Virus record (IMG/VR): IMGVR_UViG_3300031993_000006
Coordinates: 32,001-96,000 of that record
DNA: 64,000 nucleotides
Direction: 5' to 3' (one strand)
From: a virus
Taxonomy: Duplodnaviria > Caudoviricetes
Part shown: positions 31,510 to 63,903 of the stretch, one piece after another
Numbering within the stretch: position 1 is the stretch's first letter
How the letters are laid out: every line of letters begins with the position of its first letter
Made by a program: the position numbers and the translations under genes
Notes under the pieces: generated by a model
Database searches by the model: none
What the model saw: the letters and a program-made list of their open reading frames with translations, nothing else
What the model was told of the DNA's origin: nothing

Positions 31510-31535
31510 TTTAAAACCTCGTTTTGATATTGAAA

Positions 31536-32540
31536 TTATGTCTTTTTGCTGTACTTGGCGGCGATTCTGGCATCTCTTATGCCTTCATACGCCTTTTTGA
31601 GCCATTCGGCAGGTTCCTCCGGGGCCAATTCGATATTCACCATAGCCTTTACCCCGGTTCCAAGCAGGTCATCAACGGCCTGGGAGTAGTAGAAGCCATA
31701 AGTTTCAGGCGGAACGGTAACCACGAATAGCCTACCATAGACATCGAAGTCCACATTGGTACCCAAGATAAAGTCCTCAGGGTGAATCTGCTTGGTCATG
31801 CTGATAAACGGGAACCCTTCGTTCGACATATAGGCAGCCAAACCGCGGGATTCATCGGGAATCGGGTTCAATTCGATATTCAGGTCACCATTCGGACCCC
31901 CCTTGAACCCATCGTTACCCTTTCCGACGACACTCAGGTTGGTCATGCCCGGGGTGATATCGAACGAGAAGGTACAATCCTTGAAAATCTTACCCTCGCC
32001 GCCACAAATTTCGCACACGCCGACCATTTCATGGCCGGACCCGTGGCATTTCGGGCACACCTTTTCCTTCTTTCGGAACACGATTTTACCCGTGGCGCCA
32101 CAACGGGGACAATTTACCACCTTGGCGGCACCCTGCCCGGAACACATCAGGCATTCGCTGCTCTTCTGATAGTGTATTTCGTGCGCCTGCTTTCCGAAAA
32201 TGAAGTCCCTGAGTGAAATTTCCTCTGTAAGGTTGATGTCATCGCCCCGGTTCTGCGAGCGGTCGTCCACTGGCGGCTTCCCAAAATTAGCCGCGACATC
32301 GGACTTACCGAAAACCTGCTCCATCCACTTGAACTTCACGGTAAATTCGTTCCCGTTGAAATACTTCTTGCGCAGTTCAGGGGTCTTGATGAGGGAATAC
32401 GCCTCGTTCAAGGTAGCCATCTTTTCCGGGTCCCCGCCGTGGTCCGGGTGAAGCTCCCGGGAGAGCCGCTTGTAAGCCTTCAGAATCTCCTCGTCGGTCG
32501 CCTGTTCGGTCAACCCGAGTACACCATATGCATCGCTCAT
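31536..32540 (-). CDS. dnaJ: DnaJ co-chaperone
   Basis: J domain AYGVLGL..AYKRLSRELHPD..NEAY; four CxxCxGxG-type repeats; GNDG..GPNGDL. Start at ATG 32540 after GGAGG. Confidence 0.93.
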   Translation of the reverse strand: MSDAYGVLGLTEQATDEEILKAYKRLSRELHPDHGGDPEKMATLNEAYSLIKTPELRKKYFNGNEFTVKFKWMEQVFGKSDVAANFGKPPVDDRSQNRGDDINLTEEISLRDFIFGKQAHEIHYQKSSECLMCSGQGAAKVVNCPRCGATGKIVFRKKEKVCPKCHGSGHEMVGVCEICGGEGKIFKDCTFSFDITPGMTNLSVVGKGNDGFKGGPNGDLNIELNPIPDESRGLAAYMSNEGFPFISMTKQIHPEDFILGTNVDFDVYGRLFVVTVPPETYGFYYSQAVDDLLGTGVKAMVNIELAPEEPAEWLKKAYEGIRDARIAAKYSKKT

Positions 32541-33224: not shown

Positions 33225-36200
33225 TTAGAACTCATCCTCTTCAGGATTTCCTTCCGGTTTCGGAGGTTCACCCCCTTCAGGATTTACCGCCGGTTGCTCT
33301 TCGTCCGGTTCATCCGGATTGACATATCCAATCTCGGCATCAGGATTATGCCTGTTAAGGGCTATGTTTTGGTTGCCGGTGTCAAATTTAGGATTAGCGA
33401 CAGGTTCATTGACGCGGGTAATCTTGATACCGTCGTCAGTCGTTACCGTACCGCCGGCGTGAGAAAGAACCTCACGCTCCTCATCGCTCAATCCACCAAG
33501 GGCAGCATTCAAACGAGTCGGAATACGGGTATCGTTAACAGACATGAACAGTTTAAGCAACTGGTTCTTCAAACGTTCGTCACCAATCGTTTCATCGATT
33601 TCCTTAGCACCCTTCAAGGTATACTTTGAAAGTTCCCGAGCAAACGATTCCCATTCATTAGCACTTCCGGTAAACGAAGTATCGTTCAATGCGTCGTCAA
33701 CCAACTCGTGAATGATGGACGCCGGAACATCAAAGATGCAAGCATCCTTCTTACGACCCTGGCGAACAATTTCATTCTTCGGACGGCCCGCATTAGCGAT
33801 ATCGACCGTCCTCTTGATACGGACACAACCAGGTATCGGAGAAAGCGACAACATATGGCGAGCATGCAATGTGCCGATAAGCAATGCCGTAATACCATCA
33901 GTATTCATACTGATATCCGGCTTGAACGAAGTGCACTGATTCACACAAGCGATGAACTTGGCAACATTTTCATCCGCACTAAGTTCAGACATATTCGTAT
34001 CGCCGGTTTCATCACAGTACTTCTGAAGTGCTGCCCTAAGGACCGCAATGCATTCATTTTCGGTAGCATATGAATCGCCGATAATATACTTGTCTGAGCC
34101 GTTAGAGAGTACATCGCTCTCGTTCTTGTTTTCCTTTATCGGGAACCCACGGACCTTACTGAAGGTACGAATCAATTCGCGGGCTTGAGCCCTCGTCAGG
34201 TTCACATCAGGAGCATACACGCCACGACTAGCACTGGCGGCGTTAGCCAAGGATTCGGCACCCTTAGTGTATAACCCGGAGTCGTTCGCAAACTCACTAG
34301 CGAGCACATCACGAATTTCGACAAACTGCTTAGCCATTTCTTCCTTAGCCTGCTGAGACATCCTCTTACCATAGAAGGTATTCCACTGTTCCAAACGTTC
34401 GCGGTTATCAGAATTTTCGACATTGCAGTAGGTATCGATAAAGCGGTTGACCGCCACATCGATAGGATTGTTTCCCCAAGAAATACGATGGGTTTCCGGG
34501 TCACTCTTTTGAGCACCGTACAAGTCAATCGACTTATCATTCGGATTCTTGTAGCCCAGCGAATCCTTGATGGAAGATACCACAGCTTCCAGTTCATCAA
34601 GAGCTCTACGACGAACAATACCAGTAGTATTAGTATCTCGGTCACGAGGCGTCGCTCCGATACGATACATCGCCGCCCTAGCAAGAAGTTTAGGATTCCC
34701 GGCTCCCTGCAACTTAGCCATCACAAATCGCACGGTCGCATCGTACAAAGCAAGAAGCTTGCTCTTAAGATTATTCACCTTATCGTTGAACTTTTCCAAA
34801 GCGCCCGCACCATTTACATGGTCAATAGAGAACTGCAAATCCTTCAATAGGCTTGCTTCCTCAGCGTCATTTTCAGACAAAATATTGTAGACCTTACGGT
34901 GCAATTCGCTAGCACCACCAATAGAGCCTTCATCAGTCTTAAGATAGCTCATATCGCTTACCGGCGAATAACCGTGCATAGTACGATATGCCTTCAAGTC
35001 GTCAGCTTCAGATGAAGTATGCTTCTTGATATACTGCCGTGAAAACTCAGACTCGCGGTTGTATAACTTGTCCAGAATGTCATTAGCAATATTCTTGCGA
35101 ACGGCATCGTTGACCGGTTTCCCGCTGGCCTCATACCTATTGAGAGTGCGAGCGTACTCATTCAAGATGTTCTCGGCGACATCATCCATATTGCCATTAG
35201 GGTCAATCATTTCGCCGATATCCTTAACCGCAGTAGCCTTAGGTACGCTCCCGTTACCAAAGCTGACCATCGCCGTAGAAATCTCGTTAAACACACCCGT
35301 ATTTTCTGTAGGCGCGTGTTCAGCGAATACCTGATTAACAATATGGTCAGCGATTTCATTTATCTGTTCTACGGTAAGGGCACCGGCATTTTCCAGCGGT
35401 ATCCGGTCCATACACATCGAGATAAAGTCATTCGCCGCAGTATCGTTACCCTTGAACAAGCCAAGAAGATTAGTGCCTTGCTCGTCACGAGCTTTAAGCG
35501 CATTCCTCTTCTTGATTGACGGAGAAATACCGGTCTGACACATTTCGCCAAGAGCAACAGAAAGTACACTCTTTAGCTTTTCAGGTGCAAGGCCTTCCAA
35601 AGTATCGTCATCAATCTGAGGGGCATCGCTATAGTGGTTACCGAATACCCGGCGCATGATGTCATTACTCTGCGCGGTACGCTGTCTAGTTTTAAGCAAA
35701 TCAGCGGAGCGGTCAGCAGTAGCCTTCATTGCATCTTCAATAGCACCGTAATCAACACAGCTATAGAGACGAGCCAATGGAGCATAGCCGGTTTCACCGC
35801 AAGTGCGAGCCGCGCTTGCCTGAATCGATTTTTCGAAAGCATTTATCCTTTCCTTGAAGAGAGGACGGCTAGTTTCGCTATCACGCTTTCTAAGGTCATC
35901 AAGAACCGGATTATTGGCTAGCATACGATTGATTACTTTAGTACGAATCGTTCTCACGATAGACATAACGATATCTTCAGTAATCTCAGTCGCGTTTCCC
36001 CCTTGATTAGGTTCAAAGGTACCAATAAACCCACCGGTCGCCTGAGCAATTTCGCCAATATTAGCGAACGGCTTTGCTATCTTAGCTGTCGTATCACGGC
36101 TGCCGTCTTCCGCAAAGGTGACATTTGACGGTTCATCTGAATCTTCCCGCTGCACACCGCTGAACACATATTCAGGGAAATCGATGGAATGCACTTGACC

Positions 36201-39200
36201 ATCCTCATCAACTTGGCCAAGCAGCTTCTTGAGGAACCACCCAACACTAGCATATGCCCTGCTGTAGCCGCTCTCATCACGCATCAACATGTACACGAAG
36301 GCGGAGGCCAAATCATTATTAACTACCCCGTTATAAATCGCGCGAGTTTCTTTGTTAGCTTTATTGTCCAGCTTGCTAAGAATATCATCAAACGGAATCA
36401 AGGCACCACGATAACCCATCGTATCGCTCATGCCCAACGCATTATAGATACCGGCCAAAGTATCAGAATAATCTTCCTCTTGATACAAGTCTCTAATATG
36501 GCTACCAAAGACTGAATGGCGCAAGTCCGAAGTCTTTTCCGTATTAATACGAGAGCTACCGCCGGTCGCTACACCCGGAAGCATACCTACAGCAGCATAC
36601 TTGTTTGTGCGCTCGCCAGGACGGCTAGCAAAATCGTTGAACTTTCCAAGACCATTTACTTCGCCCGAAACAGTTTCAGTACGCTGATATGCTTCCAACT
36701 TCAATATGATATTTGCCACGGCCGTACTTAACTTATGTGCAACTTCATATATCACCTCAGGGTCACCATTGTTGACCTCTTCACGGTTGCTCAACCCATT
36801 GACCAATTTATCGAAACTGTCGCGAACATCATTGACGACATCGGCAATAATATAGTTATTAGCCTTTGCCACTCTACTATCGATAGCTTCCTTAATAGCA
36901 GCTGCCTCAGCCACAATGTTACGACGATAGATATCCCGCTTAGATGTCATAAATACATAGAAGGCATCGATTATCTTGGTAATAATCGTATGGGCATCTG
37001 TATTCTGTGCATAAGCCGTAATCGCGGCATTCCCGCTCGACACGTCATCGTTAAGTTCCTTAGCATCCGCGTGGGCTGAATCAAGAGCAGCAGCAAGCTT
37101 CTTAAAGTCAGTCTGACTTATGCGGTCATTTAACCGAAGACGCCCGCTTCCCGTATGATAAGCATCATCGCCAAACAGGATATAGCTCATCATCGTGCAA
37201 TCAGTTGCATCCTCAAAATCATTGGCATTATCATTAGACATCCGGAGCAACGCAGACTCGTCAATAGAATCCGTAGCTTCAGCCGTCTCATCGTCAGTAC
37301 CCATATAGGATTCCGGACTCACCAACCGGTCGATAGCGTTTTCCTCACCCTCACGTCCAAGCAACTCGTCATCTTCATGACCGGTAACTCGGCGAGGGTC
37401 ACTATGGCCATAACCCTTATTGTAATCAGTCTCCTGATGTCTAGACATATTAAGTTCATCAGGAACATCCTTGGCAGCCTGCATTGCTATGATAATATCA
37501 CCCAACGAACGCTGCATAATGACAGGATTGCGCTTAGCATACGGCTCAATAATTTCAAGGAGTTGCTGCATAGATTGCACAGCATCCGGAGAAAGGGCTA
37601 CGTTATCCAAATACTGAAGCAAAACATTGTATGCCGCGACATCAGCTTTCTGGTTTGTCTTGGCTTCTCTTGGAATAGCTCCCTTGATATGCTCAAGATG
37701 AACCCGAATCAAATCCTTAAGAGCCTTGATACTCTTCGCATACAATTCGTGTCGAGTGTCGGTATCGGCATTTTCAGGATTGTCCGCAATTTCCACAAAC
37801 CGTGTAGTTATTTCGCGCATTGCGGTGCGAACGGAATCCATACCTTCATAATAGTCAAAGGTCTCACCAATATTTGCCAGAGGATGGAAAACATGTTCAG
37901 CGTCAAGCTCAGTATTATTAACAGTTATCGCATACGCATCGCGCTCTTTTTCACCATTTTCACCCACCACGAAACTGCCATCCTCGTTACGGATACAGTA
38001 TTCGTTATCTTCCAGAGCACCCAATTCAGCCGCAGGAACTATCACAAACGGATAGTCGACACCATACAAATGGTTAGTGTCTTCGGCTTCAGTTCCGAAT
38101 GCCTTGATAAGTCTCATTAAGCGTACAAAATTAGCACCATCGGGACCGTGTTCAACCCATTTAAGAACGGATTCCAATTTGCGTACATTATCGAGACCAA
38201 TATTAAAGTCCTTATTCGAAGAATAATGCTTAATGTTTGCCATCAAAGCATCAGTAAGTTCGCTAACAGCAGTCGTGGCACCTTCATGCAGATTACCGTT
38301 CAACAAATTATACAGCTTCAAGTTTTCCCAAAGACCGTCAGGAATCTCATCGGCCAGTTGGCTCCGCTTTAAATCCTTGATGCCACTTCGTTCCTTATTG
38401 AAGAAGGTCAACGCATCAGCGATTGTCCCAAACTCGTTAACATCGATTCCGCTATGTTCAACGGCATCACTCATTTCCTGAATCAAGGAAATCGTTTTCG
38501 CTGAAGCCGTACCCATCGCCCAGGTAAACTTATTCATCGAAGGAGTAAACAGTTTACCCTGCGCAGAACCGCTATTGTCCGTAAGATGAACTTCGTTGGA
38601 AGCTCCATAGTAGTCATCGGACTTGCGGTAGGTGTTAGACGGACCGCTTTCGATTGACTTCGATGCAATAAACCGAATACCACGCCACACTGCATAGCAC
38701 TTAGTAGAGTCACCCGGGTCATCCATATATACGGCACGAGGGAATACCCAAGTATCAGCAGCGCTTTCCTGAACATCATAAGTAGCACTAAGTTGTCCTG
38801 ACTCAAATCGGATTCGATAAGTATTGTCGCCGTCATTTGAATGCAAAGCCTTGAGCACCGTACCGTGCATATACTTCAAAACCTCTTTACCAGCTTTGGT
38901 AATAGAGTCTTCGGCACCACCAGTCAGGCGAAGTCGACCACGCTCGCTCTTATTAATCACATACAAAGGCTGAGCATCATCCATTGTCAAACTAGAATCC
39001 AGTTCAACATTAAGTGACTGCTGCTTCACCTCAAATACATAGCGCAATATGTAAGCACGGATTTTGCCCATCCATGTCTCTGTATATGTTGTATTAAACG
39101 ACTCGACATCATCCTTTCGTGCAGGCACATTACGGTTCCGCACAGTTTCAAGTACAATTCGAGCAATATTATACCATTCACTTGTTTCAAGCGTTTCAAG

Positions 39201-41336
39201 CCAACGGTTACGGAGTTCAATTGCGTTCGCGACAGAAGAAGAACCGGAAGCAAGAGTATACAAGTAACTCTCGACCGCCGTAATAACCTCATCTATTTTG
39301 ATTCTCGGAGAAATCGACTGCAAAGTTAATGCATTTACAGCTTGTTCATCATCTTCAACAGTTTCGGTCGGCCTAGCGGCATCAATACCATCTATCTTCT
39401 GGATACGGGCATTAGTAGAACCTACATCGGTAACAAAGATAACCGCATAGGTAGCCAAAGCTATAGCATCCCTCCACATCGCCGTTTCAAAAGGCGATAC
39501 ATCAGAACCCGGAAACACCATTCGAGTGCAAAACAACGGAATTACGCATTCCGGAGCGACCAATGCATTAGTCACATCGTCTTCACCCGAATTCAAAGTT
39601 GCCATTTCCTGACCGGGCCACTTTAACGGATTGAGAGAATCACTATCAGTAAGACGCTGAGCATATGACCCAGCGTTCTCTGCCGGAGTCGATACATCGT
39701 TAGCTTTAGCAATAGTTTCACTGCTAGGAGTCTCAACCTTTGATGGCTTGGTACCAACATTCTCAGCGATATGCGTCAAGTCATCGTCAGAAGTAACACC
39801 GGTGGTAGCTTCGCTAGCATCAGGCGTCAAGCCAGTAACAAGACTAGCAGAAAACTCGCCAGAATGCATATTATCGACTAAGGTACCCACGAGAGCGGCA
39901 ATACGCAGCGAATGATAGTAATTACCCGTCTTTTCCTTGTTGGTCAAATTTGTGAGCAACTTATTAACAGAATCGCTCAAATAGGACCCTACCTGCTTCG
40001 AAAGAGGTGCAAGCAATTCAGTATAAAGCTTGCTCGAGCGTTCTACAGATTCGCCATCACTATTGTATTCACCGCTAGCATTTTTGCCAACGACATCGCC
40101 AATTCTAGCCAAAGTCCAGTTACTTATACCACTCTTGTATATTCTGCCATCACCGGCGGAAGCTACCCTAAATGCACGGATTGCATCCATTGCAGAAGCA
40201 TATTCGGCAAGGTCATCTTCAGTTGCGCCACTTTCGCGCAATACCTTCATCGCATAAGAGTTGTCGTTGTTATCACCGACCAACGGTTCCCGCTCGGGCC
40301 CGCAAGGCATAATCGGAGCAATAACCATCAATGCAGCCAACTGGCCGATACTATAATGCTTATTCAGTTCTCCGTCCACGGCGTTATCGTTAGCCTGTTC
40401 CTGAATAGTGCTGCTCAGTACACTATCGAGAGTCCTAAGCATTTTCTGCACGGAACCATTCGCGCCATTCTGAATCAAGTCAGCCAATTTTACCGTCAAG
40501 GCAAACACCGAGTTTGCTATATTAAGGTTTGCATCGGCATCGTTCTCATCATCACTGGACTTTAGCATAATTGATGCATAGAAAATATGCTCACGCAACT
40601 TAAGCTGCGCCCACTGCTCGGCGTTGACCAGTTTAAACCGGCCGTCCGCCTTAAGCTGAGCTTCCTGCTCCTCATCTTGAGGGCATTTATACCCAAACAA
40701 AGAATCAAAGTCTATACTATCCTTAATACGCCCAAGCATTTCGAGCTTAGCATTGGCGTTTTCCTTTTGAGAAGCCGATGCACGACCGCTTGAAGTAATC
40801 TTATTTAGCTTAGTCGACATGTAGTTAAGGAAACCGATAGTCGTATAACGAGTATCGTTAAGCTTTCGGTAAATGTCGCTCAGCTGATTGTTGACCATCC
40901 GGTTGCTAAAGGCAGTATCGGTTTCACCTTTACGGCCACCTTCGGTAACATGCAACAGGATACCGCCATAAAGATTATCCAACATCTTGCACAACGGATG
41001 TGCTTCCGGATTTATTGGCGTCTCACTCGGGATATATTCACTTCGAAGCGTATCGAAGGTAATACCCGGAATCTTCTTCACGGTTTCAGGTGACCTATCA
41101 GTCGGAAACCCGGTCGGGCGCCCAGCAGTGTATGTACCGTTGCTAAGCTCCGTATAGATATCGGCCACTTCAGGATGCACAAATGATACCAAGTATGCAA
41201 CTTCAGTACCTGTATTGAACATACTGGGCAGCTGGGATTTATAACCATTCTTTATAAACCGAATGTCATTGCTTGCGTTTGCATAGTTTCTAAGCAATTC
41301 CTTCCTGGTTTCTGCATCCATCGATAGATTGGCCAT
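33225..41336 (-). CDS. Giant late protein (2703 aa), function unknown, probably virion-associated
   Basis: Uninterrupted ORF; TATAAACT at 41373-41380; GAGG Shine-Dalgarno; no recognisable catalytic motif. Confidence 0.85.
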   Translation of the reverse strand: MANLSMDAETRKELLRNYANASNDIRFIKNGYKSQLPSMFNTGTEVAYLVSFVHPEVADIYTELSNGTYTAGRPTGFPTDRSPETVKKIPGITFDTLRSEYIPSETPINPEAHPLCKMLDNLYGGILLHVTEGGRKGETDTAFSNRMVNNQLSDIYRKLNDTRYTTIGFLNYMSTKLNKITSSGRASASQKENANAKLEMLGRIKDSIDFDSLFGYKCPQDEEQEAQLKADGRFKLVNAEQWAQLKLREHIFYASIMLKSSDDENDADANLNIANSVFALTVKLADLIQNGANGSVQKMLRTLDSVLSSTIQEQANDNAVDGELNKHYSIGQLAALMVIAPIMPCGPEREPLVGDNNDNSYAMKVLRESGATEDDLAEYASAMDAIRAFRVASAGDGRIYKSGISNWTLARIGDVVGKNASGEYNSDGESVERSSKLYTELLAPLSKQVGSYLSDSVNKLLTNLTNKEKTGNYYHSLRIAALVGTLVDNMHSGEFSASLVTGLTPDASEATTGVTSDDDLTHIAENVGTKPSKVETPSSETIAKANDVSTPAENAGSYAQRLTDSDSLNPLKWPGQEMATLNSGEDDVTNALVAPECVIPLFCTRMVFPGSDVSPFETAMWRDAIALATYAVIFVTDVGSTNARIQKIDGIDAARPTETVEDDEQAVNALTLQSISPRIKIDEVITAVESYLYTLASGSSSVANAIELRNRWLETLETSEWYNIARIVLETVRNRNVPARKDDVESFNTTYTETWMGKIRAYILRYVFEVKQQSLNVELDSSLTMDDAQPLYVINKSERGRLRLTGGAEDSITKAGKEVLKYMHGTVLKALHSNDGDNTYRIRFESGQLSATYDVQESAADTWVFPRAVYMDDPGDSTKCYAVWRGIRFIASKSIESGPSNTYRKSDDYYGASNEVHLTDNSGSAQGKLFTPSMNKFTWAMGTASAKTISLIQEMSDAVEHSGIDVNEFGTIADALTFFNKERSGIKDLKRSQLADEIPDGLWENLKLYNLLNGNLHEGATTAVSELTDALMANIKHYSSNKDFNIGLDNVRKLESVLKWVEHGPDGANFVRLMRLIKAFGTEAEDTNHLYGVDYPFVIVPAAELGALEDNEYCIRNEDGSFVVGENGEKERDAYAITVNNTELDAEHVFHPLANIGETFDYYEGMDSVRTAMREITTRFVEIADNPENADTDTRHELYAKSIKALKDLIRVHLEHIKGAIPREAKTNQKADVAAYNVLLQYLDNVALSPDAVQSMQQLLEIIEPYAKRNPVIMQRSLGDIIIAMQAAKDVPDELNMSRHQETDYNKGYGHSDPRRVTGHEDDELLGREGEENAIDRLVSPESYMGTDDETAEATDSIDESALLRMSNDNANDFEDATDCTMMSYILFGDDAYHTGSGRLRLNDRISQTDFKKLAAALDSAHADAKELNDDVSSGNAAITAYAQNTDAHTIITKIIDAFYVFMTSKRDIYRRNIVAEAAAIKEAIDSRVAKANNYIIADVVNDVRDSFDKLVNGLSNREEVNNGDPEVIYEVAHKLSTAVANIILKLEAYQRTETVSGEVNGLGKFNDFASRPGERTNKYAAVGMLPGVATGGSSRINTEKTSDLRHSVFGSHIRDLYQEEDYSDTLAGIYNALGMSDTMGYRGALIPFDDILSKLDNKANKETRAIYNGVVNNDLASAFVYMLMRDESGYSRAYASVGWFLKKLLGQVDEDGQVHSIDFPEYVFSGVQREDSDEPSNVTFAEDGSRDTTAKIAKPFANIGEIAQATGGFIGTFEPNQGGNATEITEDIVMSIVRTIRTKVINRMLANNPVLDDLRKRDSETSRPLFKERINAFEKSIQASAARTCGETGYAPLARLYSCVDYGAIEDAMKATADRSADLLKTRQRTAQSNDIMRRVFGNHYSDAPQIDDDTLEGLAPEKLKSVLSVALGEMCQTGISPSIKKRNALKARDEQGTNLLGLFKGNDTAANDFISMCMDRIPLENAGALTVEQINEIADHIVNQVFAEHAPTENTGVFNEISTAMVSFGNGSVPKATAVKDIGEMIDPNGNMDDVAENILNEYARTLNRYEASGKPVNDAVRKNIANDILDKLYNRESEFSRQYIKKHTSSEADDLKAYRTMHGYSPVSDMSYLKTDEGSIGGASELHRKVYNILSENDAEEASLLKDLQFSIDHVNGAGALEKFNDKVNNLKSKLLALYDATVRFVMAKLQGAGNPKLLARAAMYRIGATPRDRDTNTTGIVRRRALDELEAVVSSIKDSLGYKNPNDKSIDLYGAQKSDPETHRISWGNNPIDVAVNRFIDTYCNVENSDNRERLEQWNTFYGKRMSQQAKEEMAKQFVEIRDVLASEFANDSGLYTKGAESLANAASASRGVYAPDVNLTRAQARELIRTFSKVRGFPIKENKNESDVLSNGSDKYIIGDSYATENECIAVLRAALQKYCDETGDTNMSELSADENVAKFIACVNQCTSFKPDISMNTDGITALLIGTLHARHMLSLSPIPGCVRIKRTVDIANAGRPKNEIVRQGRKKDACIFDVPASIIHELVDDALNDTSFTGSANEWESFARELSKYTLKGAKEIDETIGDERLKNQLLKLFMSVNDTRIPTRLNAALGGLSDEEREVLSHAGGTVTTDDGIKITRVNEPVANPKFDTGNQNIALNRHNPDAEIGYVNPDEPDEEQPAVNPEGGEPPKPEGNPEEDEF

Positions 41337-46552: not shown

Positions 46553-47248
46553 ATGTCTATTTATGTTGTCGGCTCATCAAAGAACATGTTTCCCGAACTA
46601 GACGCCGGGAGAGAAAAATTCATCGTAGATAACCCGCACGAAGGCGACAATATCGACCGCCTTAACAAGTGGTACTGCGAGCTTACCGGTCTTTACCATC
46701 TCTGGAAGAATACGGATGCCGGATATATCGGACTTGAACATTACCGTCGCTTCTTCGCATCCCTCAAGCACGAAAAACAGCGTATGGGAATCGAAGAAGC
46801 CCAGGAAATCCTCGAAAAGCACGACATTATAGTGACCGAATACCATCACGGCCCGCGCTATACCGCCCTACAGTGGTTCAAGGACTCGTCCAGGAACAGA
46901 ATCTCCTATATAGTCTACCTACAGAAATTCCTCGAAGTGCTTAGCGAGGAAGACCGGGTGGGCTTCTCTGAATATCTAAACCGTCACTCCCTCATTCAGT
47001 GCAATATGTTCATCGGGAAGCGTCCCGTAATTGACCGTTGGTGCCGATTTATATTCGATGCGCTCGCGAAATATGACAAGATTTGCCCGCCGACGGAAAA
47101 CAACATCCGCATGAACGGCTACCTGTCAGAACACATATTCGGGTACTGGCTAGAAAAAGAGAAGGTACCCTATTACAGGGTACCCAAGGTTGAAATCGAA
47201 TATATCGTCCGTCAGGGAAACGGACCGGTCTCTATTGGACCAGCTTAA
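46553..47248 (+). CDS. DUF4422-family putative glycosyltransferase
   Basis: GDNIDRLNKWYCELTGLYHLWKN..YIGLEHYRRFF..CNMFI..RMNGYLSE signature. Confidence 0.85.
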   Translation: MSIYVVGSSKNMFPELDAGREKFIVDNPHEGDNIDRLNKWYCELTGLYHLWKNTDAGYIGLEHYRRFFASLKHEKQRMGIEEAQEILEKHDIIVTEYHHGPRYTALQWFKDSSRNRISYIVYLQKFLEVLSEEDRVGFSEYLNRHSLIQCNMFIGKRPVIDRWCRFIFDALAKYDKICPPTENNIRMNGYLSEHIFGYWLEKEKVPYYRVPKVEIEYIVRQGNGPVSIGPA

Positions 47249-50200
47249 TTGCCAATGACTCGGTTGCCGTATCGACCATGAAGTCATCCGGTTCCACGGC
47301 ATTGTTGACAACGGAATACGCGGTGAGCTCATCCCCGTTGGTACACCAAGCGTAGCAGCCGAATGTATCGACGAGCTCGCCATTTTCATCCATACGCCCA
47401 GTCGGTTCAAAACCAAGATGCTTCTTTGCGACTACCTCAGGGTCATTACCGAGATGCTCGATTTCAGAAAGCGTCGGGAGACGCCATCCGGACGGCAACC
47501 CATTGGCAATATACTGACGAGCCTCGTCCATACTGAACAAGGTGGCATTCCGGCTCGTATTCATCTTGCCATTGTTCAACCTGACAAAACCGTCCATCCA
47601 GTTAAGCCCGTTAGCCACATGGTACTGAATCGAACCCTGCCCCTTAGATGCCGCAGCAACGCCGCCCGATACCGCAAACTGTGAAGTATTGCCGGCAAGC
47701 TCCTTTACCTTTTTGGCAAGAACAGCTGCCTCATCCGGCGGCAAGGTATCGATTAGCTTATTGATATTCATCTCGTTTGCCCGGATGAACTGACGGCTAA
47801 ACAATTCCCACCCAGCCCGGGCGCCGAGACGGATAAGCATCAGCAATCCGTCGGATGTAGAACTCATCTTTTGAAGCTTGTCCGGAGTGATGTACTTCTG
47901 GCAAAGTTCTCTTGCGATATTGAGTGGTATCTTATCAATCTGTGAAAGCATCGCATCGGAATGCGTTTCCATAAAGGTCGCCAAGTCTTCAGGCTCGATT
48001 ACCCGCTTACCAGGTTCAACATCCTTATCATATCTATTAGATATTTCAAACAGACTACTCAAGGCTAAATCTTGCGCTTTGATTGCATCTTCCTCACCAC
48101 GAATATTTCCATCGTATAGAGGCTTCGTAAGAATTCTTGCCCCAGCGAAACATGTCCCAATGAGAGCAATCTCAGCTTTTTCATCCGTCGTTTCTAGCAA
48201 TGTATGGTGCAGCTTATCATATATTCGCATCAGTTTCAGACGAACAGTATCCAATGGGATTACAACCATCTTCTTTACTGTCTTTTCGCCATTACCAACA
48301 GAGACATCTTTCAATTCACTCTTAGTACACTTGAATATACCAGTCTTTCGGTCAAGAAACATCTTTGTTGCAAGTACTTCATCTGCACTGAATAGCGCAA
48401 AATAAAACTTTAGCATCACAAGGTACATCTGTAAGATATCAGAATCGCATATAGCAAACTTATCCTTGTTAGGCTCGATAAAGACTTTGATATATTGGGT
48501 TTCAGTATACTTATCTTCAACCAGCAAATATCTATCATTGAAATTGCTATCCACGATATTACGGAATACATCCTTTAATCGACGCCCCCACACCGTATTC
48601 TTTTCAACATCATACAATACATCAGGTGAATCGGCATAAGTCTTAAAGATATATAGCAATTCATTTTGATTTATTACACCTGAATCAGCACGGTAGCGAA
48701 TCATGCGAACCAAGTTTTTGGCATCAACCGATTTCATATATAAAGGATTATTATCATTTCCAATCTGAGAAAGCCACCGAAGTTTCGGCCAGACCTGCAG
48801 CCCGCGAACTCGAGTAACCAGCACACCAATCTCATGCACTAAATTATCAGTTTCATCCGTCGCATGTCCATTACCATCACAAGTTTCTTTATAAGCAATC
48901 TCCTGTAACTGCGGAGTAACCACACGGCGGCAATCATCCATAATCCGTTTAGCAAGAGCAGCATCTTGTTGTTCATACGTATTACCGGCATCGGTAAGAA
49001 ACTGTGGAGAGAATTCAGTACGATTAAAAATATATAATATCCAAGAAGTAAAGTAATGGATAATAGCCACCGCGGTACCATACTCTACCGATGGTGACCC
49101 CATATCATAAATCGATTCGATTGCGTCATCAGATATCGATACATACTCGCCTGTTTTCTTAGCCATATCATTAAGCAAGTCAACGAAATACCCAATAGAC
49201 GTATTCTTAATAAGAGCTACCTGATACTCTGGGTTATTCAACCTCCTGGCACTTTCAGTTGTTGTATTTGACCCAATCGAGCCGACCAGGCCACCGATTT
49301 TATGTCTAGCTGAAATAGTATCGCCTTCCTTTCCATCGGTAAGCGCGTATAGAGTCTCATCCGGATATTCCACTAGAGCAGCAAACCCTATCTCAGGTTC
49401 ATTACCAAAAATATCCCGGACAATACTTTTCATGCGAGCATCGAGAATCGACTCCGCATCGTCATAAGTTGCGCCATTATTTACAAAATCTTTCAAGTCA
49501 TCGATATCAAGTATCTTCGCCTCGAGACACTCAACAAGTAGAGCCAATGACTTCAGAACACTAATTCCGTATTCAAGCTCATTATCTTCAAATAACCTGC
49601 CACCAATATTGACTATACGACCAGTAGTCACATTACTAAGCTTCCCATAATAATCATTCTTTGCCAAAATCTTGGCCAAGCGACAGTACAGCAAGAACTT
49701 AATCGACTTATTATTACGAGCTGTACACGCTCTACGGACATCTTTAATAAATCCTTGCCAAACTGTATGTTCTGTTACATTATAGGATTTATAATAAATA
49801 TCGCATTGATGCGAAATATTATTAAAATACCCGGCTTCCCCTAGCGTTAAAATAGAACTGAAGGCCTGAATATAATCAGATAACAGAGCGTAACCCTTGT
49901 CAGAAACAAACTTTACCCTCGCTAAAGTATTACCACCAACAGTATCAGTCCATACATCGGCATAACCGTCAGTTTGACTTTCATCGGTTATTTGATTAGT
50001 TCGACTATTACCAAAATCATTCATTATTAGCCAAGCGACCTTAGACTTAGCATTCTTCGGGTCACCATCTACAGTACCAATAGACGGAATATCCCACCAT
50101 TCGCTCCCGTCACTATTTCTTGCAATGCATGATGCGCCCTCGCCGGTGATATTTTTATGTAACGGTGACACAATAGCATGGTCAAAAAAATCATCATCAG

Positions 50201-50807
50201 GATTTACCCTATTAGATGCCGATAACGCTCGCTTTGATATCAAATCTTGAAATCGATTCATTACACTCAGGCCAAGCCTACGACCAGCCACCTTGGCATC
50301 AATCCTATTCACAAATTCAACGGCTTCGTCAGAAGTGCTCGGCGATTCGTGGAATCTTGTCGCAACGATTTCACCGATTCTTCCCATCATTACGGTCTTA
50401 ATATTTTCAATCGTATTCTGTAAATCATTATTGCGACGCACCTCAGGATAGACATATTCGATAGTGCCACCTGAGGTACGATACCCGATTCCACTAGCTT
50501 TAAGTCCAGCATCAACTATATCGCTGACTTTCTGGTCGATTGCCCGGAAACACGGGGATTCATTAAGCTTACGAATCATTTTTGAATTATTAAGCGACCC
50601 ATCCTCATTCAGACATTCGGTAACATCCAGGTTTAACATACTGGCCATCTTGCCATACGGGAAAGGAATCAACTGAACACCCTTCGGAGCAGGGGTACCG
50701 GCTTCGAATAATACCCGGTAGGCACATTCAGTCAATGCGACCATTGCCGCGTCCACACCTTCAGAAATCAATTCCTTGTATTCACCTGCTGAAAACATAT
50801 CGTACAC
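47232..50807 (-). CDS. Large late protein with a C-terminal degenerate Fib_succ_major (FISUMP)-like domain
   Basis: TATAAACT at 50829-50836; C-terminal GLNWMDG..LFSMDEA..LPSGWRLPTLSE..GFEPTGR..YAW..SLAIKLVQ. Confidence 0.75.
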   Translation of the reverse strand: MYDMFSAGEYKELISEGVDAAMVALTECAYRVLFEAGTPAPKGVQLIPFPYGKMASMLNLDVTECLNEDGSLNNSKMIRKLNESPCFRAIDQKVSDIVDAGLKASGIGYRTSGGTIEYVYPEVRRNNDLQNTIENIKTVMMGRIGEIVATRFHESPSTSDEAVEFVNRIDAKVAGRRLGLSVMNRFQDLISKRALSASNRVNPDDDFFDHAIVSPLHKNITGEGASCIARNSDGSEWWDIPSIGTVDGDPKNAKSKVAWLIMNDFGNSRTNQITDESQTDGYADVWTDTVGGNTLARVKFVSDKGYALLSDYIQAFSSILTLGEAGYFNNISHQCDIYYKSYNVTEHTVWQGFIKDVRRACTARNNKSIKFLLYCRLAKILAKNDYYGKLSNVTTGRIVNIGGRLFEDNELEYGISVLKSLALLVECLEAKILDIDDLKDFVNNGATYDDAESILDARMKSIVRDIFGNEPEIGFAALVEYPDETLYALTDGKEGDTISARHKIGGLVGSIGSNTTTESARRLNNPEYQVALIKNTSIGYFVDLLNDMAKKTGEYVSISDDAIESIYDMGSPSVEYGTAVAIIHYFTSWILYIFNRTEFSPQFLTDAGNTYEQQDAALAKRIMDDCRRVVTPQLQEIAYKETCDGNGHATDETDNLVHEIGVLVTRVRGLQVWPKLRWLSQIGNDNNPLYMKSVDAKNLVRMIRYRADSGVINQNELLYIFKTYADSPDVLYDVEKNTVWGRRLKDVFRNIVDSNFNDRYLLVEDKYTETQYIKVFIEPNKDKFAICDSDILQMYLVMLKFYFALFSADEVLATKMFLDRKTGIFKCTKSELKDVSVGNGEKTVKKMVVIPLDTVRLKLMRIYDKLHHTLLETTDEKAEIALIGTCFAGARILTKPLYDGNIRGEEDAIKAQDLALSSLFEISNRYDKDVEPGKRVIEPEDLATFMETHSDAMLSQIDKIPLNIARELCQKYITPDKLQKMSSTSDGLLMLIRLGARAGWELFSRQFIRANEMNINKLIDTLPPDEAAVLAKKVKELAGNTSQFAVSGGVAAASKGQGSIQYHVANGLNWMDGFVRLNNGKMNTSRNATLFSMDEARQYIANGLPSGWRLPTLSEIEHLGNDPEVVAKKHLGFEPTGRMDENGELVDTFGCYAWCTNGDELTAYSVVNNAVEPDDFMVDTATESLAIKLVQ

Positions 50808-52179: not shown

Positions 52180-55100
52180 ATGAACGCATCAATCAACTTA
52201 AGCCTATTTGAAAGTGTCCGTATTCTCTTCGAAGCGGCCGCTACGGAAAACGAACTTTTCCGCATCATTGACGAAGATATCAGAAAGAACTTCTTTATTG
52301 AAGGCGACCCGACTATGCAGGCCGAGCAAGTCGACGAAGTTAACGATGTAGCCGAAATTTTCCGTACCGTAAGCGCTGCGGAAGCCCGACGCATTACCGG
52401 AAATGAAGAAATCCCAGATGTCGAAGATAACGATGCACCGGCCAACCCGGAAAATAATGCACCGAATGGCAACAATGGTACAATTTCAATCGTAGACTAC
52501 ATCCGTGCAAAGGCAATCGAAACCCTTACATATCCATCGAATCACCCAGGGTGCATGGGTATCGGTAATTCCCGCGAAGCAAAAATTAGACTTGGCAAAT
52601 TCTATGGAAGCAAACAAAAGCCGAAACCGCTGGACCCGAAAAACCCAGCAGGCAAATGGATATTGCCGCCGGATGAACCAGCTGCATTATCACAAACAAA
52701 ATATGCGCTCGTGTCCAATCCGGACCAATTGCCGCCAGACTTCAAAAATTATATCAGCCTGGTAGCTAGGCAATATCTACCCGGTTTAATCCGTATAGCA
52801 TTTGAGGATTGCGGTCTTGCTAGTTATCTATTCTATACATTTGATACACTCAGACGAGCACTATTGGTTTACTACGGCGAGCGTTTCGACAATAATTCAA
52901 AAAAACTACAGGACTTCCTTCGAGTGGAATTTCCACGGGAATGGGACTACGACCGTATGTTCCACCTAGCACATATTGTGATTCCGCAACTCGTCATCAA
53001 GTCTAAATTAGCACCGATGGAAGCAACGCCAAATTGCGACAAGGGTCTACTAAAGCAAAATATCGATTACCTCGGTAAAAACAATGTCGAGCTCATCCAA
53101 GAACTCATCGACCCAATCGAAACGCCGGTCGGACCAAACATTGATATAGGCGGTTCCCGTCCATTATCCTACAAAAACCTACTGAAACTTGCCGATGTTA
53201 ATGGAGTAAACCATTCTCAAGTTATTGACCAGCGAATGAAACGCCCTGATGGGACCTTGGATTATTATATTCCTCCGGAAAACAATAATGAGGATGATAA
53301 AAATAATGAAGATGAACAGGTCAAATTCCAGCTTGCCGGTCCGATAGTAACTGATGAAATGCGCCAATCTTATAACGATAACGCTCTTAAAGAAAAGTTA
53401 AAAAATGAAGCTAAATTAGAATTTCCTTCGATAAAGATAGGCGATTGGTATGTCGAACAAATCGGAAACGGCGTATCCGATGCAGAAAACTATCCAGATG
53501 GCTGGTTTACTTTTAATGAACCATCTGCCGGCAAACGACATCAATTCATTCACCGCACACCAAATGAGGAATACGGTGAAGGTGGCGTAGGATACTGGTG
53601 CTGGTGCCGCGGAATGCTCGAAAATTACCGGTCGTCTAAGTTGAAGGATGTCGCCTATGCGCTAGTCCATAAATCAGCACTTGACCCAGCAGTACTTAAA
53701 GACAAAGCATGGAACCATAAGCATAACGGAACTCGTTATGATGCATCAGCATTCGGTATTGTTATTGCCGGTGGTAAAGACCATAATCCTAACGAAGGCC
53801 ATATCCCTGGACTTGTTAAGGCAGATTGCTTCGAATCTAGAAATAACACGACATACGAAAGCGGTCGTCCCGGCCGTCCTAGCGCTGTATCATATCCACC
53901 CGACATGGTACCTAATGGCGGAAAAATTCCTGGTCTTGTCCCCATTAGAGACAGTATGTCCCTTAAAACAATGAACATTGCACAGGCTATCAATAACTCA
54001 ATCTTTTCATTAGCATTGATAGGCAAATGGGACTCCAACATAAATGTATACGATAGCGACGGAACACTGCACCCGGAAAATCTAGTACCCCTCATGCAAA
54101 AATGGTTCCCTGCCGATATTTCAGATGCCGAGCTTTTACCGGCACCGGAGAATATATATCATAGGCCAATTCGAATAAAGAGCATCGATATCAATGAAAT
54201 GGCGAAAGATATCGAACATATTATCACGACAAAGGGAACGCGTGTAAACGGTTTCCACCGCAGCGGAAACGATACTAGCGGCGATATATTTAAGTTCGAC
54301 GATTCTATTTTCAGAGGAAATGTATTTCAGTTTAAGGGAACCGACTATAGTGTATTAGCTAAGAATGATGCAACTCTTATTGCAGTTCCTACCGAAGTAT
54401 ACGATTCTACCCGTAAAAATTGTGATGGGAAGCTAGAAAATATCTTATTCTTCATGCAAGAAGATATTGACCCGCCGGCATTATTATTCCTCTATTTCAA
54501 CTATCCTGGCCAGAAGAAACATGTCGTTCCATTCCAAACAGAGCCAATCGCCTTGAGCGATGCACTATCGCTTAACGTCGATTCAGTAATAGACAAGCTC
54601 CAGCTCGACCAAATGAATAGAGATAAGCAAAAGAATCCACGCACTCTTCCTACACCGGATGAGCATGGCATCACCTGGTATGCTCCTATATTAGGCGAAA
54701 CACTCAAGAAAAATAGAATCGGCGTAGATATTAAGAACGGGGGAAAGGTATATCTTTCGGGACCGGATACAAATAATGAAGCCGTGCCTATCGAATGCAA
54801 AATACCCGGGCGCCTTCGGACATTCACCGCAAGAGGAAGTTTTATCAAGGTAGGTGACTCTGGATATAACCTATTTTTTAACGCACACCGCCGGAGCTAT
54901 ATCGGCTATGTAAGAAACAATAAAACTACTTGGTTCGAAGTCTTGTTCAGAACAACCTTCCCGGGAACCGATAATGCGCTTCTGAGCTACATCGATGATG
55001 AGGGGGAACGAGTCAAGAAACTGACGTTAGGCAACATCTATGGAAATCTAGCAAACCGTATGCGAATGTCCTCAAAAGACCGCTATACAGGATGCATCGA

Positions 55101-55326
55101 CTGGGTATCCACCGATGACACTATAGATGATGTCAATATATCCGATGACTTCAAGAATGAACAGTACGAGAATCATCCAAAAGATATCGGTCTATGCGTA
55201 ATCGCCGGCGATTTCAACGGAGACGCCCATAAGGCGGTGGGATATATCGACTGGTACAGTACCAGTACACTTGAATACCTCGATACGACTCCGGTATTCC
55301 TCAATGACCTATATCACAACGATTAA
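52180..55326 (+). CDS. Large late protein, distant paralog of 50899-52158
   Basis: LFESVRILFEA N-terminus; YLPGLIRIA versus YMPGVARIA; YWCWC..Y..AYAL..RYDASAFGIVI..SRNN. Confidence 0.8.
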   Translation: MNASINLSLFESVRILFEAAATENELFRIIDEDIRKNFFIEGDPTMQAEQVDEVNDVAEIFRTVSAAEARRITGNEEIPDVEDNDAPANPENNAPNGNNGTISIVDYIRAKAIETLTYPSNHPGCMGIGNSREAKIRLGKFYGSKQKPKPLDPKNPAGKWILPPDEPAALSQTKYALVSNPDQLPPDFKNYISLVARQYLPGLIRIAFEDCGLASYLFYTFDTLRRALLVYYGERFDNNSKKLQDFLRVEFPREWDYDRMFHLAHIVIPQLVIKSKLAPMEATPNCDKGLLKQNIDYLGKNNVELIQELIDPIETPVGPNIDIGGSRPLSYKNLLKLADVNGVNHSQVIDQRMKRPDGTLDYYIPPENNNEDDKNNEDEQVKFQLAGPIVTDEMRQSYNDNALKEKLKNEAKLEFPSIKIGDWYVEQIGNGVSDAENYPDGWFTFNEPSAGKRHQFIHRTPNEEYGEGGVGYWCWCRGMLENYRSSKLKDVAYALVHKSALDPAVLKDKAWNHKHNGTRYDASAFGIVIAGGKDHNPNEGHIPGLVKADCFESRNNTTYESGRPGRPSAVSYPPDMVPNGGKIPGLVPIRDSMSLKTMNIAQAINNSIFSLALIGKWDSNINVYDSDGTLHPENLVPLMQKWFPADISDAELLPAPENIYHRPIRIKSIDINEMAKDIEHIITTKGTRVNGFHRSGNDTSGDIFKFDDSIFRGNVFQFKGTDYSVLAKNDATLIAVPTEVYDSTRKNCDGKLENILFFMQEDIDPPALLFLYFNYPGQKKHVVPFQTEPIALSDALSLNVDSVIDKLQLDQMNRDKQKNPRTLPTPDEHGITWYAPILGETLKKNRIGVDIKNGGKVYLSGPDTNNEAVPIECKIPGRLRTFTARGSFIKVGDSGYNLFFNAHRRSYIGYVRNNKTTWFEVLFRTTFPGTDNALLSYIDDEGERVKKLTLGNIYGNLANRMRMSSKDRYTGCIDWVSTDDTIDDVNISDDFKNEQYENHPKDIGLCVIAGDFNGDAHKAVGYIDWYSTSTLEYLDTTPVFLNDLYHND

Positions 55327-55340
55327 CCAAATCAAAGACA

Positions 55341-55372
55341 AATAAGAAAGGCGGTCCGGTGGGCCGCCTTTC
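55341..55372. terminator. Bidirectional intrinsic terminator
   Basis: GAAAGGCGGTCC-GGT-GGGCCGCCTTTC; minus-strand tail TTTCTTATTT. Confidence 0.85.
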
Positions 55373-55585
55373 CCGTTTAAACCGTTAACTGAAACCTACC
55401 TAAATCTACCAAGAGATAGACCTATGTGATTTCCTACCTTGCCCATCGCTGGGTAGGCCGTAACGGCACTTAATCAACCGCATCTACGCCATATTCCTAA
55501 TATGCATCAAACAACACGGCTGGCTTGCCTAGTCCTACTCCATTGCTGGAGAGCCTTAACACGGTCGGCATATCAGACTAGACAT
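55341..55585 (-). ncRNA. Candidate structured non-coding RNA (about 240 nt)
   Basis: Promoter variant CCTATATTTAG at 55588-55598, terminator at 55341-55372, no ORF in the track, multiple helices with G-U pairs and two GNRA tetraloops. Confidence 0.65.
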
Positions 55586-55662
55586 TTCTAAATATAGGTT
55601 ATTTTCTATATATTTCAATAGCAGATTTCGCTATATTTAGTTAAATTTTGCTAACATTTTCG

Positions 55663-56130
55663 TTAACAGCTAGCAACCCGCACCATCTTCAGCGCAGACT
55701 TTCCGGCATTGTTCCCTACATCCCCCCAGTGGCTCTTAGTCCACCCGGCAAAGAACAACGCCATATCCACAAGAGATGCCTTCCACCGGGGAAGCCCGTT
55801 TTCCCGCAACGCGCCCCTGTACAGGTCATCGCATTCCTCGCGGTTCAACTGTCCGAACCCCTTCTCGCCATAGAGTGCATCATGCAGCAACGCCGCAACA
55901 TTGAACCCGGCACCGCCATGTTCCTTCCAAGACGGGAGAATCCACTGGAAAGCCTTCGGGACGGAGGCCCCGTCAGACTCGAAACCAGCCTTGATGAGGA
56001 TATGCATCCGGTAAGGTACATAGTTAGCATCGTGTGCAGTAATATCGATGGAAAGGTCCCGTGAAAGGATATACTTTCCACCAACCTTTTCATATTCGAG
56101 CGGACTATACATCATTGAATCGAGTGTCAT
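55663..56130 (-). CDS. DUF1353-family protein
   Basis: IKAGFESDGASVP..AALLHDALY..REECDDLY; TATAAACT at 56158-56165. Confidence 0.85.
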   Translation of the reverse strand: MTLDSMMYSPLEYEKVGGKYILSRDLSIDITAHDANYVPYRMHILIKAGFESDGASVPKAFQWILPSWKEHGGAGFNVAALLHDALYGEKGFGQLNREECDDLYRGALRENGLPRWKASLVDMALFFAGWTKSHWGDVGNNAGKSALKMVRVASC

Positions 56131-56169
56131 AGCAAACCTTCCGATAAACAATCCACTAGTTTATAGAAT

Positions 56170-62512: not shown

Positions 62513-63903
62513 TGGGCAGGAAGATGCCACCCTTTAGGGTGGCTTAGGAATGCCCACGAGAACACTTTGGGAACACTTTCTTGGTTTCTTGCAGAGAAAT
62601 GAGTACAAAACGGTTGCAATTAGCACTGTACTTTTATAAACTTTAAGCTGAACACGGGTGAAAGTATGTGTACGATAACTTACGATAACTTATAATGCAG
62701 AGCTCCGCTTCAAGGATAGAGCAGACCAAGAATACTGGTCTAGTCTTCTTGGAACGGCTAGACTCGCATACAATGAGTGTGCCAACATACTAGATTCCAA
62801 CAAGATACACCTGGACTTGAAGTCCGTACACAATGCGGTGTACTATATATTACGGGAAGACTTTCCGACAATACCATCCCAAGGTATCATCAAAATATAT
62901 AAGGAGTGCATATCAGCATTCCGTTCAATCAACTCCAATGGACATATAGAACACAAGATTCCGACCAAGAAGAACCTGTCTATGCGGTTGGACAAGCGGC
63001 TCTACTCCAAAATGAGTATTGATGGAATATCGCTTTGCTCGGAGAAATCCAATCGTAGGGCAGTTGCCGAAATAGTCAAGTTTCCCCGACTGGTTGATTT
63101 GTTCAAGAAATTTCCGACCCAGGACCCACTCATCTTCAAGCGAGACGGCAAGTTCTACTTGTCCATTCCGTTTGATGCACCAGAAATTCCAGTACAGAAC
63201 GACACCTGCATCGGCGTAGACTTGGGAGAGCGTAGGTTTGCGATTACCTCGGATGGCATCATGTTCAACGACAAGGAATACAATGCCCGTAGGCGTAAAC
63301 TCCGCTACTTGAAGCGTTGCTTACAGAAGAAGGGAACCAAGTCTGCTAGACGGCATAAACGCAACTTATCAGTTAAGGAAATGAACCAGTCCACAGATAT
63401 GTGCTATAAAGTTGCTAATGCAATTATTGAAATCACGGTGGATAGCTTCATCGTCCTAGAAGATTTAAGCAATATCAAGAAGAATACTTCCAAGTCCAAG
63501 GAAGGGTTCAAGAAGAAAAATCATAACCGTAGAATTGGGCAGGTTCCGTTCTACAAATTCAAACAAATCTTGTCATACAAGGCACTACTCAATGGAAAAC
63601 GGGTAGAAACAGTTTCTCCGTTTATGACAAGCCAAACCGACTGCACGACAGGCAAGAAAGACGGAACACGCAAGAACCGAAGATTCTATTGCAAGAATGG
63701 TACCGTCCTTGATGCCGACTGGAATGGTGCAGTCAATATCGCTCAAAAGAGCAAACATCCTTTCTCGTTCAAGATGCCGCTAGACGGTACTCTGAAAACC
63801 TGGAAGGCAGGGTGCAAGTCAACCACCCAATCGTGTATCAGTCTCCCTCTGGAAACACCGGGAGCCGTACAAGCTCACCGCCTTTAGTCGGTGGGTAGTT
63901 GAC
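62510..63903 (+). mobile_element. Second non-autonomous IS200/IS605-family tnpB element
   Basis: Left-end hairpin GCCACCCT-TT-AGGGTGGC (62526-62543); right-end hairpin CTCACCGCCTTTAGTCGGTGGG followed by TAGTTGAC ending at 63903; no tnpA. The left boundary is approximate. Confidence 0.82.
62666..63887 (+). pseudogene. tnpB: tnpB frameshifted near its 5' end by a 10-bp tandem duplication
   Basis: The ATG at 62666 reads MCTITYDNL*; removing one TACGATAACT copy restores MCTITYNAELRF..., in frame with the RuvC motifs IGVDLG / VLEDL / DADWNG. Confidence 0.75.

Follow-up and report, generated by a model that had tools for sequence, protein, structure and literature searches.

In the IS607-type element CboIStron, the transposase TnpA needs a GG core, TGGG lies next to the left end of the element and the omega RNA ends in UCGG (bioRxiv 10.1101/2023.11.20.567912). 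Omega RNAs, also termed reRNAs, are furthermore encoded by protein-less elements, PATEs, and these RNAs need TnpB in trans (bioRxiv 10.1101/2023.03.14.532601). TldRs are described as nuclease-dead TnpBs with adjacent natural guide RNAs (bioRxiv 10.1101/2023.11.30.569447). RAGATH-18-derived reRNAs are guides of IS607 TnpBs, which average ~390 aa (Cell Res 2024, PMC11061315). The locus described in the following lies in a window of 64,000 nucleotides (positions 32,001 to 96,000 of the IMG/VR record IMGVR_UViG_3300031993_000006), and the complete phage record, called G000, has 259,974 bp. Our most likely reading of the element at this locus is a PATE-like mini-transposon with IS607-like ends. We consider it probable that positions 55381-55679 (minus strand) derive from a TnpB transposon and form a protein-less element of ~300 bp, composed of a left end and, directly joined to it, a right end that encodes a guide-RNA scaffold (omega RNA).

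A sequence-only reading of the window had proposed a highly structured non-coding RNA at this site, specific to the minus strand, without open reading frame, neither tRNA nor tmRNA and of no recognised family, and in all these points it was borne out. The minus strand folds with a minimum free energy of -89.8 kcal/mol (z = -3.4), which was reached by none of 200 shuffles, whereas the plus strand of the same region shows z = -1.7. The minus strand between 55327 and 55662 contains no open reading frame of at least 30 aa, and the first ATG, at 55585, indeed opens only 9 codons that are followed by TAA. ARAGORN found neither a tRNA nor a tmRNA in the window. A cmscan of the whole window against Rfam 15 at the gathering threshold returned no match (GOLLD, ROOL, HEARO, RAGATH-18, tmRNA and tRNA included), and when E-values up to 10 were allowed for 55200-55800 the best scores were 13-16 bits with E >1, none of them credible and all of them sub-threshold noise. 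Searching the intergenic region with blastn against 50,697 GenBank phage records gave no match.

Related copies were collected from IMG/VR and JGI metagenomes, first with pattern scans and then with a covariance model, R1, which was built from 11 gene-less copies alone. The copies fall into two types, the gene-less type A and type B, which overlaps a tnpB gene. With respect to its being a stand-alone new class, the sequence-only reading did not hold up, as the window RNA is one of four related copies in G000 and one of ~65 copies overall on phage and metagenome contigs, namely ~37 of type A and ~30 of type B. In the window, the omega-RNA-like scaffold of type A comprises 206 nt in three domains at 55381-55586 (minus), as delimited by the R1 score (234 bits), the pairing, the homology and the element boundary. 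R1 matches G000 in four places only, that is three type-A copies with identities of 85-100% and one diverged type-B copy. The second type-A copy (G000:198816-199097, 93% identity) lies in a tRNA array directly after tRNA-Arg CCG, the third (G000:237950-238219) is 85% identical to the window region, and the type-B copy (G000:147311-147515) is found by R1 with 48 bits and an E-value of 4e-12. Three further phage records carry one type-B copy each according to R1. Nearly all of the ~37 type-A copies are exactly 206 nt long. Six of the seven contigs of at least 100 kb that carry type A also carry type B, and each large phage has three RNA copies and one tnpB. The family is spread over large phages (~250 kb) from a set of related metagenomes; a scan for the family signature in one genome per prokaryotic species gave no match. 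On the related contig IMGVR_UViG_3300028797_002668, 29 tRNA genes are arrayed on one strand (L005:239-5926), and a type-A copy without most of the left end and without the promoter-like box is located between tRNA-Ala GGC and tRNA-Ala CGC. The contig IMGVR_UViG_3300045988_160431 (31.7 kb) has the same type-A RNA at both ends, at positions 1-125 (truncated) and 31377-31582, which points to a terminal repeat or else to an assembly that broke within the repeated element.

Covariation among the homologues supports the fold, as 97-99% of the cells pair and 7-11 pairs are compensated in the alignments of the two types. For the 11 type-A sequences of the initial set 99.4% of the cells are paired and seven pairs are changed on both sides, a result reached by none of 500 shuffles; for 32 distinct type-A sequences the values are 99.0% and nine pairs, with 41 cells changed on both sides, and for eight type-B sequences 97.3% and 11 pairs. 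In controls in which the 3' partners were slid by 1-3 columns, pairing falls to 30-40% of the cells in type A, and to 30-44% when the controls of both types are taken together. Within the 32 type-A sequences, pair 40-45 occurs as AU (18), CG (11) and GC (2), pair 135-144 as CG (19) and UA (11), and pair 137-142 as AU (25) and GC (6). RNAalifold run on type B alone yields the same three-domain architecture as in type A, so that both types possess the conserved, covarying secondary structure that characterises an omega RNA. All helices differ in sequence between the types, which have ~60% of the positions in common; invariant in both are the 11-nt loop GACCGUGUUAA, AGGAAAUCAC, GUAGRUUUCAG and the terminal AACGGU. 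A candidate for the pairing partner of this loop is the CAC within AGGAAAUCAC.

The individual helices proposed earlier could mostly be retained. Domain 1 is a three-way junction, with a stem of 8-9 bp, GCC/GGC closing the 11-nt loop and the hairpin CUYCN-GNRA-NGRAG, and domain 2 is a long stem capped by CAUAU/AUAU(C)G, both as previously drawn and both with covariation. For the loop in domain 1, RNAalifold suggested a hairpin UGAUAUG/CGUGUUA; it was ruled out in favour of a stem of 3-4 bp around the invariant loop, which is the better reading since the identical 11-nt loop is enclosed by CCUC/GAGG in type B. Domain 3 needs revision in part: the hairpin CCCA-GNRA-UGGG and the long GAAAUC...GGUUUC hairpin are backed by covariation, and the GCCG-UUA-CGGC hairpin and the register CCUAC/GUAGG are replaced. 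GCCGUUA pairs instead with the 3'-terminal UAACGGU and thereby closes domain 3, with compensation from G-C to A-U within type A and from A-U to G-C when the two types are compared. CCUAC/GUAGG gives way to GCCU/AGGU, the register preferred by covariation, whose type-B counterpart is AUGG/CCAU. The pseudoknot that had been considered between the loop of domain 1 and the 3' end is rejected, since the covariation partner of the 3' segment is GCCGUUR rather than the invariant loop.

The relation of the RNA to TnpB is given by the type-B loci. Although derived from gene-less copies only, R1 matches the RNA over the tnpB 3' end in every case, in full length and with E-values of 1e-10 to 1e-17. At all loci (9 from IMG/VR and 21 from metagenomes) the type-B RNA overlaps the last ~63 codons of a gene for a TnpB of 555-616 aa, whose C-termini show CxxC...CxxC and the RuvC-III motif; the complete frames at these loci measure 583-616 aa. 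In G000 this long tnpB (G000:145767-147500) encodes 577 aa with GIDVN, VMENL and NADCNSSINI at the three RuvC positions. The protein matches the Pfam family Cas12f1-like_TNB with an E-value of 2e-12 and the NCBIfam model guided_TnpB with an E-value of 3e-24 over profile positions 153-388, the latter below the curated cut-off; its nearest solved relatives are Cas12f and TnpB, and ~250 aa precede the RuvC region. The G000 type-B RNA starts right after the sequence encoding ...CxxCG...CxxC...HADNADCNSSINIK, i.e., the zinc ribbon and the RuvC-III end of TnpB, ~63 codons of the tnpB frame run through it, and the stop codon lies 15 nt short of the RNA 3' end. The type-B RNA ends exactly where homology between the elements stops. 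Since the RNA lies over the tnpB 3' end, ends at the boundary and is followed by a variable flank, it is by position and by design a TnpB omega RNA (reRNA). The cis arrangement, i.e., the overlap with the tnpB 3' end, is present at ~30 of ~30 type-B loci and absent at the window copy; the longest frame over any of the ~37 type-A copies has 44 codons and no tnpB lies in cis. Because there is no tnpB at this site, the window RNA is classified as an omega-RNA homologue and not as a cis-encoded omega RNA. The last ~63 TnpB codons in G000 are thus encoded by the omega-RNA scaffold itself (G000:147311-147500; L023:1501-1690). The corresponding tail, FRLTSTVLRG...CLEKCRCDGLFK..., is conserved as protein across ~30 loci, which places the same 190 nt under both coding and RNA-structure constraint.

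Two more TnpB genes are found in the window, one at 6973-8145 (plus) encoding 390 aa with HTH, OrfB_IS605 and TNB domains and one at 62817-63887 (plus) encoding 356 aa. They belong to other families, and R1 has no match at their 3' ends. The 356-aa TnpB was considered as owner of the window RNA and was ruled out, as the four places matched by R1 in G000 exclude this gene. Altogether, at least four distinct tnpB lineages are present in the phage.

Both ends of the element are sharply defined. The left end comprises 93 nt (55587-55679, minus), as deduced from the alignment with the tnpB element and from a sharp boundary in 21 distinct flanks, and opens with an invariant GGGT (55679-55676). Phased AAAT motifs are found within it, as is an inverted repeat of 10 nt, CTAAATATAG (55640-55631) and CTATATTTAG (55597-55588). 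In the three G000 copies the conserved block extends from GGGTTG..., ~93 nt upstream of the RNA, to ...UUAACGGU, which is the 3' end of the window scaffold and coincides exactly with the right boundary of the element. The 21 distinct left junctions are random in sequence up to the invariant GGGT, and the 31 distinct right junctions consist of an invariant TAACGGT followed by random sequence from the very next base, so that, as in an omega RNA, the scaffold ends at the boundary and continues into variable sequence derived from the flank. The tnpB elements begin with GGGTTACTAACAGCTAACC...AAATATAGCAAAATCT..., which is aligned to GGGTTGCTAGCTGTTAACG...AAATATAGCGAAATCT... upstream of type A, the homology of the left ends extending over ~65 nt. 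Given these homologous left ends, type A can be understood as a left end joined to the omega-RNA right end after deletion of tnpB. The junction between left end and RNA is identical across the type-A copies.

Consistent with a discrete mobile unit, when queries of 2.5-3 kb around the three type-A copies of a second, 253-kb phage were matched to three other phage records, only the ~290-bp element was found, with 92-99% identity. Like PATEs and MITEs, the element shows homology to a protein-coding element at both ends and lacks an open reading frame in between, and it occurs in many contexts with sharp boundaries; on this basis it appears to behave as a discrete mobile unit of ~300 bp. The two genes that flank the window copy, for the DUF1353 protein and for the 1048-aa protein, were searched for homologues in five related phage records, the DUF1353 gene also in IMG/VR; none was found, and no empty site. 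All three relatives seen carry the element at one orthologous locus. When L052:9710-10290, the orthologue of the copy-3 locus, was aligned to L003 and L066, a relative was noted in which the RNA and the right flank match almost completely and the sequence is unrelated outward from the middle of the left end, which indicates a recombination breakpoint inside the left end.

Concerning the transposon family, the ends resemble those of IS607 elements, as the left junction reads GGGT and the right end CGGT in all copies, with flanks lacking a target-site duplication. Another IS607 feature, a serine TnpA inside the element, is missing, as the left end of the long-tnpB element runs straight into tnpB. 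[quoted passage not shown] A Y1 transposase (PF01797) gave no match in G000. The phage encodes an IS607-type pair at G000:195290-197196 (L044:155-2061, minus), a serine tnpA of 195 aa (Resolvase, E-value 8e-21) followed directly by a 438-aa tnpB (Cas12f1-like TNB). This pair adjoins the tRNA island, and its TnpA is the only transposase-like recombinase found in G000. The GGGT/CGGT ends, the lack of a Y1 transposase and the presence of a serine tnpA-tnpB element together favour IS607-type mobilisation of the mini-element as the more likely mode, the resident serine TnpA being only a candidate for the enzyme.

The signals for expression overlap with the left end. The promoter-like box CCTATATTTAG pointed out earlier on the minus strand is present at 55598-55588; together with TTGAAA-16-TATATT (55618-55591) the box, TATATTTAG, forms a promoter-like region (55588-55618, minus) scoring 10/12 in a sigma-70-type scan. 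Relative to the first base of R1 (55586) the box ends 1-2 nt upstream, and relative to the first base that is paired 4-5 nt upstream, and what looks like a promoter region upstream of the RNA is the left end of the tnpB transposon. The box resembles TTGCTATATTTG, whose reverse complement AAATATAGC is over-represented in G000 (37 occurrences, ~2 expected; for example at window position 63925, G000:95925, minus). TTGCTATATTTG is located 5-15 nt upstream of many start codons, which would leave very short leaders, and resembles the -7 box of Bacteroidota, TAnnTTTG, which suggests a Bacteroidota host for the phage. A strong terminator downstream of the RNA had been proposed as well. A bulged G+C hairpin followed by the U-tract UUUCUUAUUU is indeed predicted by folding at ~55374-55341 (minus), outside the conserved element; a strict terminator scan that allows no bulge did not call the hairpin at 55341-55374. 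It is probably a bidirectional terminator of convergent genes. The terminators downstream of the G000 copies are unrelated to each other, and what follows the element varies from copy to copy.

Upstream of the window copy lies a co-oriented gene (55663-56151, minus) for a protein of 162 aa (DUF1353; PHROG 'tail assembly chaperone'), the last 17 nt of which, five codons and the stop, are inside the left end of the element. Downstream, a convergent gene for 1048 aa without family match (52180-55326, plus) bounds the convergent intergenic site. The earlier suggestion that the RNA is expressed with the replication genes is not supported, no link to such genes having been found. The arrangement is typical, as at most other type-A loci a co-oriented gene ends in or just before the left end, and type-A copies usually stand ahead of a terminator or a convergent gene. 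The upstream genes of the type-A copies share no common family, so that a conserved protein partner in cis is lacking. The window furthermore encodes a 2703-aa protein at 33225-41336 (minus) and others of >900 aa at 3177-6110, 27021-29933 and 47232-50807, none of which matched among the Pfam and PHROG families tested. Huge phages typically encode such large proteins without annotation.

From these observations the following mechanism is proposed. The RNA would be transcribed from the TAnnTTT(A/G) box of the left end or, as type-A copies follow co-oriented genes, via read-through from the upstream gene. It would then be trimmed and loaded in trans onto the 577-aa TnpB of the phage. The ~16-20 nt after AACGGU would serve as guide, and TnpB would cut copies of the locus that lack the element, recognised by a G-rich motif and the flank. 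By analogy with IS605 and IS607 TnpB elements, repair from the occupied genome would restore or spread the element, and such restoring and spreading by repair has already been demonstrated for these elements. At the window copy the candidate guide comprises the 20 nt directly 3' of the scaffold (55361-55380, minus), the sequence of which varies between copies; this role is assigned because TnpB omega RNAs are built in this way. With the terminator stem beginning 9 nt beyond the scaffold end, a part of the presumed guide would be base-paired. Because types A and B share only ~60% of their positions, we infer loading of type A on the 577-aa TnpB from the shared invariant motifs and from the co-occurrence of both types on the same contigs.

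The RNA might instead be a domesticated guide-RNA gene, one of several immobile and independently promoted guides that serve the phage via TnpB, for example in cutting competitors at the loci in question or in TldR-like regulation by DNA binding. Such a role would explain why the spacing of a TAnnTTT(A/G) box to the RNA is constant in most type-A copies, including those in which the remainder of the left end is altered or replaced, and why many type-A copies have intrinsic terminators 5-27 nt downstream; it would also fit the strong purifying selection on the fold in the absence of coding constraint and the presence of three copies next to one tnpB in each large phage. Some copies have lost the outer left end and kept the RNA and the promoter box, which hints at a retained RNA gene rather than an active transposon. 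However, the 3' flanks are local sequence, which at the window copy is the resident terminator, and the four putative guides of G000, the window 16-20-mer included, match only their own flanks in this genome with no second target. The boundaries and the varied flanks resemble recent transposition, and the long TnpB has kept motifs at all three RuvC positions, so that it is not a TldR-like inactivated form. Overall, we regard domestication as unlikely.

Still less probably, the element is inert, a functionless solo relic of a transposon that has lost tnpB by deletion, transcribed at most by read-through. The element contains no protein gene and the left ends of some copies are damaged, as would be expected of a relic. 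In contrast, 32 distinct type-A copies have kept a length of 206-207 nt (one has 201 nt), a mean column identity of 94% and 99% pairing, with changes on both sides retained in nine pairs such as 40-45, and one junction of left end and RNA is common to all copies, which points to spread as a unit. A stable structured RNA without a role for TnpB, for instance a tRNA-array RNA like GOLLD or ROOL or the species 1/2 RNAs of T4, is very improbable, as only its invariant 11-nt loop and two copies located inside tRNA arrays and co-oriented with the tRNAs speak for it, while most copies are not near tRNAs, Rfam gives no match to GOLLD, ROOL or others, and the full-length homology to the RNA at the tnpB 3' end together with the transposon-like ends accounts for the distribution.

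If the protein-less TnpB-transposon derivative is the correct reading, an apparent orphan phage RNA becomes an interpretable element. Its gene-less copies, being under structural selection, provided with a promoter-like box and placed beside terminators, constitute a natural test case for trans-loading of TnpB guides and for RNA-guided homing between co-infecting phages. For annotation, R1 can be used to label ~300-bp intergenic blocks, including those in tRNA arrays. In a more speculative extension, which we put forward as a tentative idea that is rather doubtful at present, the ~250-kb phages would run a system of one protein and many guides: a single long TnpB would be served by dispersed omega-RNA genes with promoters of their own, which would mark their loci, and rival genomes lacking the cassette would be cut and converted during co-infection. 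This would amount to an RNA-guided version of the marker exclusion by homing endonucleases that is known from T4-like phages, and those copies that have kept box and RNA without the outer left end would in this case represent domesticated guides, not transposons.

Compared with the described systems, the RNA family shares the main features of the TnpB omega RNAs (reRNAs) of IS200/IS605 and IS607 elements, such as ISDra2 and CboIStron: type B starts inside the tnpB 3' end, and a multi-stem scaffold of ~200 nt ends at the right boundary and is followed by a variable flank as would-be guide. With CboIStron in particular it shares the type of ends, in that its left GGGT and the CGGT that closes the scaffold correspond to TGGG and UCGG. 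In contrast to ISDra2 and CboIStron, the window copy lacks a tnpB in cis, its guide activity is putative, no Rfam family covers it (the type-B locus likewise matched none in a cmscan at gathering score and at E-values up to 10), and the associated TnpB is unusually long (577-616 aa) with its ~250 aa before the RuvC region. As for TldR, a TnpB-family protein is combined with a genomically encoded guide that possibly has a non-transposon purpose; the differences are that the motifs at the RuvC positions are kept, that the guides do not lie beside the protein gene and that the own flank is the sole target found. The RAGATH-18 reRNAs are similar in being structured RNAs downstream of or overlapping an IS607-type tnpB and in their use as guide, which is putative for the family described here; they differ in that types A and B have no match in Rfam and in the length of the TnpB (555-616 aa compared with ~390 aa). 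Another close counterpart are the PATEs, protein-less elements of the IS200/IS605 type (Meers et al., bioRxiv 10.1101/2023.03.14.532601); like them, the element described here is made up of a left and a right end without a gene, occurs in many copies and would rely on TnpB in trans. PATEs reside in a bacterial chromosome and have Y1-type hairpin ends, whereas the elements described here reside in ~250-kb phages, have IS607-like ends with a GG core and a phased A-rich left end, and carry a promoter-like box that abuts the RNA start. Although Rfam gives no match, the novelty of the RNA is largely removed, because TnpB omega RNAs carried by PATE-like elements without a protein gene are already known; what is new is an RNA family absent from Rfam, with two subfamilies and ~65 copies, that is tied to an unusually long TnpB in large phages.
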